From Myxococcota bacterium (GTDB lineage: Bacteria > Myxococcota_A > Polyangia > Polyangiales > Houyiibacteriaceae): a DNA stretch of 64,000 nucleotides. Of the stretch, positions 41,434 through 44,967 are shown in pieces (the first letter of the stretch is position 1; every line of letters starts with the position of its first letter). The stretch spans positions 36,314 through 100,313 of the forward strand of contig JANQQS010000087.1 of assembly GCA_028284955.1 (NCBI GenBank). Direction: 5' to 3'. The notes below the pieces were generated by a model, which worked only from the letters and a program-made list of their open reading frames with translations, made no database searches and was not told the DNA's origin. The position numbers were made by a program, and so were the translations under genes.

Positions 41434-42918
41434 TCAAAGGGCCGCGACAAGTCGCTGAAACCGGCTGTCTCGCCACAGCTTGGGAAGTTGGGCATCAGTG
41501 GTAGTGGTCATCGCGTCATAGAGCTGTTGGAGGGGACGATCGATGACCCGTGGACGGAGCTTGGTCGCGATCTCTCTGAACCGGTTTGCGCAAGAGAGGT
41601 TTTCCAGCCGAACGGCGATTTCCGCGTGTGCGAGCACGTGGACGAATGATCGGATCTGCGGTTCGCCAAAGCGACCAATGAGCTCATCGTAGACAGGCGC
41701 TGCCATTCGAGACACTCCCTGGGTTCGCCCAATTCGGCAGCGCGCTACGACGCGGACGTACTCGTCGTTGATCTGCGCTGGCACGAGTCCATCGGCTGCG
41801 ATGTACTTTCGGAGTTCACGAGCCTTGGGGGGTTCATTGTAGAAGTTGTCGAATCCCTCGTGCGCGGTCTCAAGGTCGGCCACGCGGGCGGATATCTCCA
41901 GCGCAAGGTCGCTCTCGGGCAGATACGAGAGACCGCCAACAAGGTTCAGGAAGTCGTGTGCGTGCTTCTTCCGATCTAGGTCTGCATTCGCCGAGTAGTT
42001 TGCGTAGCGGAGCCCGACCTCACCGCGAGCCGACTCACCGGCGGATTGCCACACATGTTCGGCGACCAAGCGAATATTGTCCCGGACCCGCACATCCTGG
42101 CGAGGATCGCAGTAGTGACCGACCGACGAGCGCAGTAGTGCGGCGGCAAGGTCATCAGGCAAACGGCGGATGCTTGCGGCGATGGCCGGCACATCCGCAG
42201 CGGAGAGGGTCTGTTCGCGGAGGTTGCGGAGTAACCTGCCGACCTCCAATACCTCACCCTCTGGTTCTGGAAGGATGACTTCGCGGACACAGGTTTCGCA
42301 CCAAGAAATCAGCTGCAGGCCGGTGAGCTGAGCGTGGTTCGGATGGGCAGCGCTGGCCCAGTTCCTCATTTCGCGAATATAGTCGAGATGTTTGTAGCCG
42401 ATGTCTGTCAGCATCCCGCATTTGAGGGCGCCGCGAACTAGCGCGGCGTCGGACAGCGAGCGTAGGTCATCCTCGTCCTTGTAGTCGAGTCGTTGCAGGG
42501 TATCCGGCACGGCGGTGTCGAAGAAGTAGGCTAGATCAAAGCGTGCGATTCGTCCCCGCAGTCGGACAACAACCTCATCCCAGATGAAGTTCAGGGCAGC
42601 GTCGAAGAGTCCGGCGCCGCACGCCGCGACAAACTTCGAGATGTACATGGCCTCGCCCCGCCGATCCTCATCAATGTTGTGGACGAGATCCGGTAAGTTG
42701 CGGAAGACCTTGAAGCGCTCATCCGGAGTCGTGAGGACGCCCTTGGACGGCAAGCCGAGATCCTCCAGAAATCCCGTGAGGCCATCGGAGAACTTGTCGA
42801 TCGCGTTGGTCGCTGGTCGAACGATTGCGGTTTCTGTCTTCTTGTCCCTATTCGCCACCTCACCCCCGATCGCGTTCGAAGACGAGGAAGATGTTACCAG
42901 GTAAACGCGGGTTGACAC
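41434..42918 (-). CDS. hypothetical 494-aa protein with RN-x5-H (HEPN/Abi_C-like) motif
   Basis: Long ORF, GTG start; ...GYKHLDYIREMRNWASAAHPNHAQLTG...; no other recognisable family motif. Confidence 0.65.
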   Translation of the reverse strand: MSTRVYLVTSSSSSNAIGGEVANRDKKTETAIVRPATNAIDKFSDGLTGFLEDLGLPSKGVLTTPDERFKVFRNLPDLVHNIDEDRRGEAMYISKFVAACGAGLFDAALNFIWDEVVVRLRGRIARFDLAYFFDTAVPDTLQRLDYKDEDDLRSLSDAALVRGALKCGMLTDIGYKHLDYIREMRNWASAAHPNHAQLTGLQLISWCETCVREVILPEPEGEVLEVGRLLRNLREQTLSAADVPAIAASIRRLPDDLAAALLRSSVGHYCDPRQDVRVRDNIRLVAEHVWQSAGESARGEVGLRYANYSANADLDRKKHAHDFLNLVGGLSYLPESDLALEISARVADLETAHEGFDNFYNEPPKARELRKYIAADGLVPAQINDEYVRVVARCRIGRTQGVSRMAAPVYDELIGRFGEPQIRSFVHVLAHAEIAVRLENLSCANRFREIATKLRPRVIDRPLQQLYDAMTTTTDAQLPKLWRDSRFQRLVAAL

Positions 42919-42953
42919 GACGTCCTTGTAGGCTGTGGACGCAGACAGATTGT

Positions 42954-43053
42954 GACTCCGTACGGGGTCGCCCTTGCTCCGTTCGGCCGGCTATTTCTCA
43001 AGGATTTGGGTATTTCTTGTGCGTTCGCTGATGTTAACGCGCGGCTCCTGTTT
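42954..43053 (+). repeat. tRNA-trailer unit, copy 3 (partial, lacks the tRNA 3' end)
   Basis: gactccgtacggggtcgccctt..ccgttcggccgg...ggatttgggtatttcttgtgcgttcgctgatgttaacgcgcggc collinear with 23707-23795. Confidence 0.8.
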
Positions 43054-43135
43054 CGAAAGTAGCAGGCCTTCTGGGTCCATGCGGAACGATACGAACGAAT
43101 CAAGCGCCGGAGTTCGATGGTTTCTTCGAACACCA

Positions 43136-43192
43136 GTTGTCTGCGCGAGGTCGTCTTCCCAAAGCCGATAGACCGATGCTGTGTTGGAAGCG
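43136..43192 (+). repeat. 57-bp relic shared with 30641-30697
   Basis: See 30641 entry. Confidence 0.8.
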
Positions 43193-43512
43193 CCCGGTGA
43201 ATTTTCGAGGTTATTTCTCCCTTGCTTGTGACGATTGGATCGCAGAATGCGGTGCGCTCCGAGATCAACTTCACTTGACTAAACAACCCAAGTTGACCGT
43301 GTGAACAAGTCTACGTATTTGGTCAAGTTGCGTAGGCACCTTGCCTGCAGCGAAGTAACATGTCGAACGTGGCAGGTCCGGTAACAACCATTACGTTGGC
43401 TTAGTTCCACTCACAGCAGCGAGACGATATCCTCGCATACAGGAAGCGTATCTCCATCCATCCCCTCGACCGTCGGCTTGAGCCGGCTCTGATAGCGCTC
43501 GCCCGTTCGGGC

Positions 43513-44967
43513 TTGCCTCCGCTGCCGGCTGAACTCGAGGTGACCGACGTGCTGTGGGGCGGTGCTCCGACTCCCGAGGTCGCCAAAGTGTCGCTTCAGG
43601 ACGACGGCACACTTCGACTGGAGGCGCAGCCCCCGTATCGGGCAGCGATCATTTCGGACCCCGCGGAGTGGGACAGCTCCGTCTTTCGGTGTACGGCGAT
43701 TGATCATGGTCCGCTCGTTGTGAAAACAGGGCATTCGTCCATCCTTCGACAGACGTACGGATCAACGTGCAGCACCACCGCGGTACTTCACGGTTACGAA
43801 TGGAGAGCCACGACAAATGAAGCGCCAGTGTTGTGGGTGGCGCCACTCACTTTCTGGACTCGGAAACTGCCGATCTTTCTCGAGTTTTCCAAACACAATG
43901 CGCGCGTCGTCGCCGATCACGATGTCGACGTTGGGTTGTGGCGATTCGGGGGACCCAACGGTGAGATCTTCCTCGTTCCCAACGAGGAGCGCTGGTACAT
44001 CGCTTTCGAAGCGAAAGAACCCGAAGGCCCCGATTCTGATCATGTGCATCTCACCCGAAGCGTGCTCGGGTTTCTTTTTGGCGAGCCAGTGAACGTTGGC
44101 GTATTCCGGCCCCTTGACGATCGAGGGGTGCGTCCTGGTCTTGTGCATCTGGGACTGAACCAACATTGCGGGCATCGTCCTTCTTGCCAACCACCCGCGC
44201 TGCCCATGGAATGTGAGCCAACCTGGACTGCGCGGTTCGTTGAGGGGTTGCTTCGTCTTGCCGCACAAGGCTTCAGCGACCCGCTTATTCGCGCTATCCA
44301 CATGTACTTCGCGGCGATTGAAGGCTTCGTCGAATTGAATTTACTCAGCGTTTGGGTGGCGGCTGAGTCGTTCGCGAAACAGGGCATCAAAGCGAACGTT
44401 TTTCCCGACGAGCTGGAACGCCGAATCGCCAACCACGACGAATGGGTCAGTTGGGTCCGGCGCCACCAAGAAGAAATAGAAACGCTCGCCGTTCCCGGGA
44501 TGGGGTCGCGTCTAGTCGATCGCGTGATTAGCTCCGAGAACGACCGACCAACTCCTGTGGAACGTGTCTTCAGCGCTTTGAAATTGCCCTGGACACCCGA
44601 AATGGAGGATGCGCAGAAGGCTCGACATGAAGTTGCCCACGAGGGGACTCTTCCTGGCGAAGAACGAGATTGGGACCGTGATCGGGCTCGCGTCGGCCTC
44701 GTGAAGACAATGCTCACGGCGCTCCTCGGCAAAGCAAGCAGGTATGAGGGACCCATCGCGGATAGGTCCCGAACTTGCTTCAAGATTGCAGGCAGCGACA
44801 AGCCCAAGTGGTGGCAAGCCGTTCAGCTCGACAATGATGAGGTTCATGAGGGCGCGGGCGTCGCGGAGTCCACAGAGCGATGGTTGGCTGAGCTGAGGCG
44901 CCTCGAGTCCGAGGCACAAGATAAGTCTTCGAACGGCTCTGCGGACCGGCCGGAAACTCCGGAATAG
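43513..44967 (+). CDS. hypothetical 484-aa protein, C-terminal RH-x3-H (HEPN-type) domain, ApeA-like layout
   Basis: Long ORF with TTG/GTG start only; beta-rich N-terminal half; helical C-terminal region with ...AQKARHEVAHEGT... Confidence 0.6.
   Translation: MPPLPAELEVTDVLWGGAPTPEVAKVSLQDDGTLRLEAQPPYRAAIISDPAEWDSSVFRCTAIDHGPLVVKTGHSSILRQTYGSTCSTTAVLHGYEWRATTNEAPVLWVAPLTFWTRKLPIFLEFSKHNARVVADHDVDVGLWRFGGPNGEIFLVPNEERWYIAFEAKEPEGPDSDHVHLTRSVLGFLFGEPVNVGVFRPLDDRGVRPGLVHLGLNQHCGHRPSCQPPALPMECEPTWTARFVEGLLRLAAQGFSDPLIRAIHMYFAAIEGFVELNLLSVWVAAESFAKQGIKANVFPDELERRIANHDEWVSWVRRHQEEIETLAVPGMGSRLVDRVISSENDRPTPVERVFSALKLPWTPEMEDAQKARHEVAHEGTLPGEERDWDRDRARVGLVKTMLTALLGKASRYEGPIADRSRTCFKIAGSDKPKWWQAVQLDNDEVHEGAGVAESTERWLAELRRLESEAQDKSSNGSADRPETPE

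Follow-up and report, generated by a model that had tools for sequence, protein, structure and literature searches.

We analyzed a pair of divergently transcribed genes, gene A on the minus strand and gene B on the plus strand, in a 64,000-nt stretch of contig JANQQS010000087.1 from a Myxococcota bacterium. This whole stretch is referred to as the window, and all coordinates are counted from its first letter. An initial annotation had described A and B as orphans with HEPN motifs on either side of a shared 594-bp spacer. It had offered two alternatives: two cassettes that had landed so as to flank an old recombination site, or one bidirectionally regulated module. Overall, our results are best explained by two unrelated, separately mobile genes that lie side by side, each of which probably encodes a HEPN-type RNase, and we regard this explanation as likely. 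The narrower statement, that A and B are independent and do not form a two-gene module, is very probable. The answer for the pair would then be two independent genes, chance neighbors at a recombination scar, one of them damaged, and no new HEPN system is defined by their arrangement.

Occurrence of the two gene families

Co-occurrence was studied by searching 33 loci with both proteins (tblastn) and in a context sample of 13 distinct B neighborhoods and 7 distinct A neighborhoods, to which a plasmid collection was added. The initial annotation had proposed to look for homologues of both genes recurring as a divergent pair. Among the 33 loci, both genes were found together only in L010, which is the window's own contig (public contig, Logan SRR20820731, 100% identical to window positions 35352-47602; it supplied the public gene calls used here). 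All 13 B contexts lacked A, and all 7 A contexts lacked B. In the plasmid collection, A was present on 89 plasmids and B on none. All-against-all clustering of the flanking open reading frames (ORFs) from these 20 contexts revealed no conserved neighbor for either family. The two family profiles were also unrelated to each other, with an hhalign probability of 0.2%.

Neither gene is an orphan. A word-indexed search with A returned more than 550 relatives (clusters) at an E value of 1e-3 or lower, from Bacillus, Vibrio, Aeromonas, Xenorhabdus, Paenibacillus, and many metagenomes. Comparison with PHROGs matched A to phrog_27609 over nearly its full length (E 6e-63). The A-bearing plasmids include conjugative plasmids of E. 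coli, Shigella, and Klebsiella (e.g., IncFIA/IncFIC) and also plasmids of Clostridium, Bacillus, Streptomyces, and Rhodococcus, and every copy on the 89 plasmids is annotated as "hypothetical protein." Plasmid neighbors of A were MazF, HicB, Phd/YefM, and PemIK genes, recombinases, and IS26. At one further locus A lies among SIR2, TIR, DprA-like, and PRTase genes, and at another it stands at the end of a Mu-like prophage. The settings of A are thus defense or mobile-element DNA. The family, with members on IncF and further plasmids, within prophages, and within defense islands, is covered by no Pfam, NCBIfam, or PADLOC model.

For B, the word-indexed search returned 9 relatives and an exhaustive HMMER search returned 265 cluster representatives. 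The sole match in the species-representative genome set was an uncultured Nannocystaceae metagenome-assembled genome (MAG), and B had no match in the plasmid collection or in PHROGs. The public call of B in L010 comprises the last 253 codons only (44206-44967, starting at ATG 44206; L010 positions 2636-3397), and two shadow ORFs are called on the opposite strand over the N-terminal half of the gene. Because this call is partial, full-length B is missing from the protein database, and the gene had seemed rarer than it is (9 versus 265).

The loci of B homologues differ in their surroundings. In the Nannocystaceae MAG (CAZFKC010000021.1; loci L004 and L014), the homologue at 8001-9533 lies between two sigma-54-activator-like genes (398 aa and 299 aa), both short of a full N-terminal part. 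The homologue and the stop of the downstream gene overlap by 4 nt, and the homologue might represent an insertion into a regulator gene cluster. A gene of the FG-GAP/HemolysinCabind kind, related to the FG-GAP genes of the window, lies about 2 kb from this homologue, a hint that the source of the window belongs to a related myxobacterial lineage. One branch of the B family (L008, positions 5915-8499, and L009) has a divergent 204-aa HTH_3 (XRE-type) gene as its neighbor and an integrase 660 bp downstream. Apart from this HTH_3 gene, nothing points to a regulator associated with the B family, and the gene is not conserved at other loci. Two neighbors of the pair in the window were considered as functional partners and rejected. 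An HTH homologue of the HTH_3 gene at 40305-40991, a candidate regulator of A or B, is not common to the loci, despite the divergent HTH_3 gene of L008. The AbiEi/AbiEii genes, candidate partners of B, are absent from every other B locus.

The spacer and the two coding frames

The genes and the parts of the region between them are as follows.

41434-42918, minus strand: gene A, maximal ORF, GTG start, 494 aa.
41434-42858, minus strand: gene A as in the public call (protein P0001, identical), GTG 42858, 474 aa.
42859-42953, minus strand: 5' leader or promoter-proximal DNA of A, or the first 20 codons of A if GTG 42918 is used (from the start-upstream sequence and the trailer alignment).
42954-43053, plus strand: degenerate third copy of the tRNA-Met trailer (repeat family D6; alignment and blastn).
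43124-43255, plus strand: relic of 30629-30762 (blastn, 74% over 135 nt, E 2.6e-16).
43256-43404, plus strand: AT-richest part of the spacer (G+C content, 0.47-0.52), ending in TTG(43396)-GCT-TAG(43402).
43405-43512, plus strand: N-terminal coding segment of B without a canonical start (translation, homologue alignment, and AlphaFold2 [AF2] model).
43513-44967, plus strand: gene B ORF, TTG, 484 aa, first canonical start in the frame.

The region between the two divergent ORFs (42919-43512) has a G+C content of 0.544, compared with 0.600 for the window, and ranks in the lowest 1.2% of 594-bp windows. Its earlier description as G+C poor and filled with relics was borne out, and so was the third copy of the trailer repeat. 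Within family D6 this copy shows 81% identity over 47 nt, and by blastn it matches with 72% over 90 nt (E 2.5e-10). It consists of the terminator hairpin, with a decayed T-run, and of downstream sequence; the 3' end of the tRNA is absent. The leader segment of A meets the relic roughly where that 3' end would have stood. Weak similarity may extend further, into the inverted tRNA fragment behind the first trailer copy.

The second relic had been reported as a 57-bp methyltransferase tail at 43136-43192. The repeat itself was confirmed, but it is larger and of another origin. Its source begins 71 nt past the stop of the methyltransferase ORF (29911-30558) and comprises the intergenic or upstream region and the first ~20 codons, coding for a signal peptide, of a beta-lactamase-like ORF (30701-31720; Pfam). 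The two relics follow each other in the order and orientation of their source sequences, but only 70 bp separates them, compared with 6.8 kb between the sources. On this evidence the spacer resembles a second copy, now decayed, of the region downstream of tRNA-Met.

The AT-richest part of the spacer carries an 11-nt inverted repeat, ACTTGACTAAA / TTTGGTCAAGT, at 43273-83 / 43318-28. The CAAGTTG reiterations reported earlier were recovered as two spacer copies, at 43289 and 43324; the window holds 15 in total, against 5.8 expected. This part may be the remnant of a promoter or operator for B. We did not find CAAGTTG upstream of B homologues, and scanning the spacer for a sigma-70 consensus promoter and a terminator revealed neither. 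An RNA antitoxin (type III-like) or other noncoding RNA within the spacer was considered as well and rejected, given no tandem repeats, no Rfam match, and no significant folding (z score, -1.6).

The coding frames on either side differ in their state. For A, the GTG at 42858 is the probable start, with GGGGGTGAG upstream, and it agrees with the length of most homologues (470-475 aa). The GTG at 42918, which has AGGA upstream, is possible too. Judged by alignment with 17 and 104 homologues, A is intact and full length under both candidate starts. Residues of A are numbered here in the 474-aa form.

The frame of B extends beyond TTG 43513 and is open back to 43405, a further 108 nt; residues of B are numbered over the resulting 520 codons. 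The 36 upstream codons are conserved and encode FHSQQRDDILAYRKRISIHPLDRRLEPALIALARSG, and the translation of 43405-43512 aligns with the N termini of homologues (consensus ...LEPALVALARxGLP). From the ORF definition and the translation, this frame contains no ATG, GTG, or TTG before 43513. Where L001, L004, L008, and L020 have ATG, the window copy has TTC, and the sequence TTG(43396)-GCT-TAG(43402)-TTC places an in-frame TAG immediately before the conserved frame. In the AF2 model, the 36 residues without a start form a helix, a strand, and a helix of the N-terminal domain, with a predicted local distance difference test score (pLDDT) of >90. The gene otherwise shows no stop or frameshift over 1,563 nt and keeps all family-invariant residues.

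We concluded that B either lacks its N terminus or became a pseudogene very recently, with a rare start codon also possible. Its product, if the gene is not a recently inactivated pseudogene, would be a truncated protein made from TTG 43513 or from a rare codon. That B is impaired in the window is fairly likely. A fully functional B is possible but doubtful; it would be expressed as a shorter isoform from TTG 43513 or from a noncanonical start (ATC 43429/43450/43456, CTG 43489, or ATA 43492). The uninterrupted frame, the presence of every family-invariant residue, and the continued conservation of the 36 upstream codons would fit such a gene. However, all close homologues begin ~36 codons earlier, with ATG, and the shorter isoform would miss a confidently modeled segment of the N-terminal domain. 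Moreover, no Shine-Dalgarno-like sequence precedes TTG 43513, and the in-frame TAG stands right before the conserved region.

These results modify the earlier statement about the gene starts. Both genes had been given non-ATG starts abutting the spacer. GTG and TTG do stand at the ORF ends, but A probably starts at 42858 and the frame of B reaches 43405. A comparison with full-length homologues for N-terminal truncation had also been advised; in this comparison B proved short by 36 conserved codons, whereas A is full length.

The state of the spacer and of B bears directly on a true two-gene module. In such a module, A and B would be expressed divergently from a shared regulatory spacer and might, for example, form a heteromeric HEPN nuclease or a toxin with its immunity protein. 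The genes are adjacent and divergent, both code for an R-x4-6-H motif, and the inverted repeat together with the reiterated CAAGTTG could form an operator. On the other side stand the absence of co-occurrence in 20 independent contexts and the plasmid collection, unrelated profiles, and very unequal family sizes. In addition, relics of other loci make up ~230 of the ~490-550 bases of the spacer, and neither a start codon in B nor CAAGTTG upstream of its homologues is present. The pair is not one of two intact genes with a dedicated shared regulatory region, because B has no start and the spacer is a mosaic of relics from 23.7 kb and 30.6 kb. The initial annotation had itself named genes that never co-occur elsewhere and 5' truncation relative to homologues as evidence against a module. 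Since co-occurrence was found nowhere else in the sampled loci and B has lost its start, the module fails on both counts, and we consider it highly improbable.

The other alternative, two cassettes flanking an old recombination site, is supported by the relic spacer and by the independent distributions of the families. The landing or recombination site would be a second, degenerate copy of the sequence downstream of tRNA-Met, made up of the trailer and the beta-lactamase-like 5' end. A now lies to the left of this copy, in the place of the tRNA, and B to its right, ahead of AbiEi/AbiEii and an HTH gene; all of them are part of a small conflict-gene islet. The independence of the families and the relics themselves are directly observed; the order of the insertion events we infer. 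Of the signs of a tRNA-linked island boundary, a copy of the trailer is present; it lacks the tRNA 3' end and is only 72-81% identical. Among the ORFs scanned no integrase was found, only an IS66-type fragment at 23871-24347.

HEPN-like motifs, predicted structures, and surroundings

Motif conservation in A was scored on an alignment of 105 sequences, which contains two invariant segments, SKFxAACGAGLFDAALN (about residues 74-90) and RxMRNxASAAHPN (residues 162-174). The second includes R165-N166-x5-H172, a HEPN-like motif (R-x4-6-H with a polar residue after the arginine) that is invariant in all 105 sequences. The strongest conservation, however, lies in SKFxAACGAGLFDAALN, not in the R...H segment. 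The AF2 model of the 474-aa protein is all alpha-helical (pLDDT, 90.5). R165 forms the C-terminal end of helix 152-169, H172 is in the next loop, and helix 180-195 follows. Both invariant segments are in the N-terminal third, and the C-terminal ~270 aa form helical repeats. A Foldseek search of the PDB with this model gave ARM/HEAT/PUF repeats as top matches, none significant (E 0.007 or worse; template-modeling score, <0.3). The same model had no significant match in BFVD, and PDB sequence and profile searches with A returned no match.

The model of B (pLDDT, 85.8) has a beta-rich domain at residues 1-250 and a helical C-terminal domain at 272-444. The long helices of the latter span 272-303, 309-329, 398-413, and 423-444; an insertion separates the second from the third. 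As in A, the motif arginine stands at the C-terminal end of a helix, and a loop and another helix follow. The close family has invariant E321 and R407-H-x-V-x-H412-E. The B superfamily alignment (95 members) has a mean column identity of only 17%, and its consensus at the motif is RNxVAH, with R407 and H412 conserved in ≥90%, among the few near-invariant positions. B therefore also carries R-x4-6-H with a polar residue after the arginine. Foldseek against the PDB gave no significant match for B; Csm6 was at rank 42, with a probability of 0.23.

Profile searches gave signals at these motifs. In the A family, the segment RxMRNxASAAHPN is exactly where Abi_C (E 0.11-0.14) and DUF4145 (E 0.083) align, in some members only (6 and 2 of 105, respectively), with 12-13 bits against gathering cut-offs of 23-24. 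In the B superfamily, PADLOC matched Cas13-ApeA in three members (best E 0.0016) and CARF_HEPN and AbiD in one member each. The B profile matched the antiviral protein Ec3ApeA (9HXJ) in the PDB with an E value of 0.36, aligned on the ALE helix and RNxxxH. These weak matches for B were confined to HEPN models. Pfam profile searches with B and its family found nothing, as did a search for ApeA sequences with Ec3ApeA fragments and literature look-ups by protein accession. The HEPN motifs claimed at the outset are present, and invariant in both families, but they are unaccompanied by any HEPN profile match at a curated threshold. Putative HEPN membership of A and B is drawn from the motifs together with the subthreshold matches. 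On balance, we lean slightly toward each gene coding for a HEPN RNase that acts in abortive infection or defense.

It is unlikely that the genes are independent but that one or both are not HEPN RNases and serve instead as a scaffold, a regulator, or an exclusion or stability factor on mobile elements. The missing curated-threshold and structural matches and the position of the strongest conservation of A outside the motif agree with such roles. The weak matches are nonrandom, however: they are repeatedly to HEPN models and fall exactly on the motif. The motif residues are invariant in the A sequences, R407/H412 of B stay near-invariant despite the low column identity, and the neighborhoods consist of toxin-antitoxin (TA), Abi, and defense genes.

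Several observations weigh against two separately mobile HEPN-type RNase genes as the explanation. Pfam, NCBIfam, and PADLOC searches with both window proteins gave no curated-threshold HEPN match, and all HEPN signals are subthreshold. A PADLOC scan of 105 A-family members produced scattered, noise-like matches only. Neither cassette is delimited by an integrase or a clean att duplication. Finally, the sample of 13 B and 7 A neighborhoods plus the plasmid screen is small.

Directly downstream of B, 250 bp away, lies an AbiEi_4/AbiEii pair (45220-45774 and 45771-46700); behind it come genes for DUF6429 (46782-47018) and for a 126-aa HTH_3 protein (47113-47493). Together with the HTH_3 gene at 40305-40991, the segment of 40.3-47.5 kb is a small islet of TA and Abi-type genes. 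It is located between an esterase gene with FG-GAP genes on one side and a TPR gene on the other. The FG-GAP genes are two large minus-strand genes for repeat proteins (34204-38451), the first of which has six tandem 195-nt repeats with 80-84% identity (34217-35491).

Other repeats are found elsewhere in the window. Behind the tRNA-Met gene (23618-23694) and its trailer lies part of the tRNA 3' half in inverted orientation (about 23795-23840). Part of the tRNA 3' end plus trailer is then repeated directly (23844-23963, 85% identical), and an IS66-type transposase fragment follows (ORF 23871-24347, LZ_Tnp_IS66). The segment 23618-23963 looks like a scar of repeated integration or excision at tRNA-Met. 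A 91-nt sequence is directly repeated at a distance of 8.5 kb (47545-47635 / 56098-56188; 96% identical); it matches nothing in Rfam and shows no convincing coding frame. L010 ends within its first copy, which suggests an assembly break at the repeat. A 171-nt direct repeat (53109-53279 / 54880-55050; 92% identical) flanks an ORF at 53990-54877 that has no Pfam match.

Comparison with known systems

In DARNA (PD-T7-3), a 456-aa, all-alpha, single-protein tRNase activated by single-stranded DNA, the HEPN domain is N-terminal (R117-x4-H122), and the C-terminal part is a Pds5-like solenoid, the sensor of SSB-bound single-stranded DNA (bioRxiv 10.64898/2026.02.22.705581). A is likewise a single gene, of ~460-475 aa, for an all-alpha protein with an R...H motif in its N-terminal third and a long, putative C-terminal alpha-solenoid behind it. 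Both occur in mobile-element or defense settings. In contrast, no sequence similarity between them was detectable, either by PADLOC with A and 105 relatives or by PDB sequence search, and by sequence A does not belong to the DARNA/PD-T7-3 family. PADLOC-DB 2.0.0 holds a PD-T7-3 model. Compared with DARNA, A has the additional invariant segment SKFxAACGAGLFDAALN. Its spacing of R-x6-H (165-172) as opposed to R-x4-H also counts against reading A as a HEPN-type RNase. By analogy with the experimentally demonstrated mechanism of DARNA/PD-T7-3, A may be a stand-alone HEPN-type RNase that is inactive until infection. Its N-terminal HEPN-like domain would be catalytic through R165/H172, and its putative C-terminal alpha-solenoid would serve as a sensor or an oligomerization scaffold.

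ApeA (bioRxiv 10.64898/2026.01.26.701840; PDB 9HXJ and other entries) is an anticodon nuclease of the HEPN type, a single protein that is activated by deoxydinucleotides. Its HEPN domain is split and C-terminal; the protein is mostly alpha-helical, and its N domain is catenin-like and its Mid domain PafA-like. B shares the single-gene logic and perhaps the type of HEPN domain, and weak profile matches link the two. On the same opposing side as the motif spacing of A, residues 1-250 of B are beta-rich, whereas ApeA is predominantly alpha-helical. The close B family also has R-H-x-V-x-H-E in place of R-N, and the top 50 Foldseek matches include no ApeA chains. Because of its beta-rich N-terminal domain, B is not a member of the ApeA family. 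An ApeA-like, single-protein logic may nevertheless apply, in which activation would lead to cleavage of tRNA or another RNA and hence to abortive infection. The beta-rich domain may sense, and the helical C-terminal domain would carry the R-[N/H]-x-V-A-H motif.

Within the HEPN clan, A also resembles Abi_C (PF14355) and DUF4145 (PF13643), in that the motif regions align and A is found in Abi and TA neighborhoods. Abi_C and DUF4145 are families of abortive-infection and restriction-linked proteins. Unlike the motif region, the rest of A is unrelated to them, and the scores stay below the gathering cut-offs.

Both families are unannotated and have hallmarks of single-protein HEPN abortive-infection effectors, the class of ApeA and DARNA. 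Tentatively, and short of an even chance, the A family could be a new and widespread group of single-gene HEPN effectors of abortive infection or defense, gated by a solenoid that responds to a trigger other than those of DARNA and ApeA. The B superfamily would then be a second class with a new beta-rich sensor. Members of the A family are frequent on plasmids of clinical relevance from E. coli, Shigella, and Klebsiella; if the family is an anti-phage or plasmid-stability RNase, it would be a defense gene missed by annotation tools. The two families, above all plasmid-borne A, are modestly interesting candidates, and their arrangement in the window is of low interest.

The known two-gene arrangement closest to the locus is HEPN-MNT / HepT-MntA, a two-gene HEPN toxin-antitoxin system. 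A HEPN-type motif in an island of TA and Abi genes is common to both. In contrast to HepT-MntA, the locus has no nucleotidyltransferase partner, and it codes for two large HEPN-like proteins whose genes are divergent instead of cotranscribed and were found together at no other sampled locus. The most fitting description of A and B is as uncharacterized variants of the single-protein HEPN abortive-infection effector.

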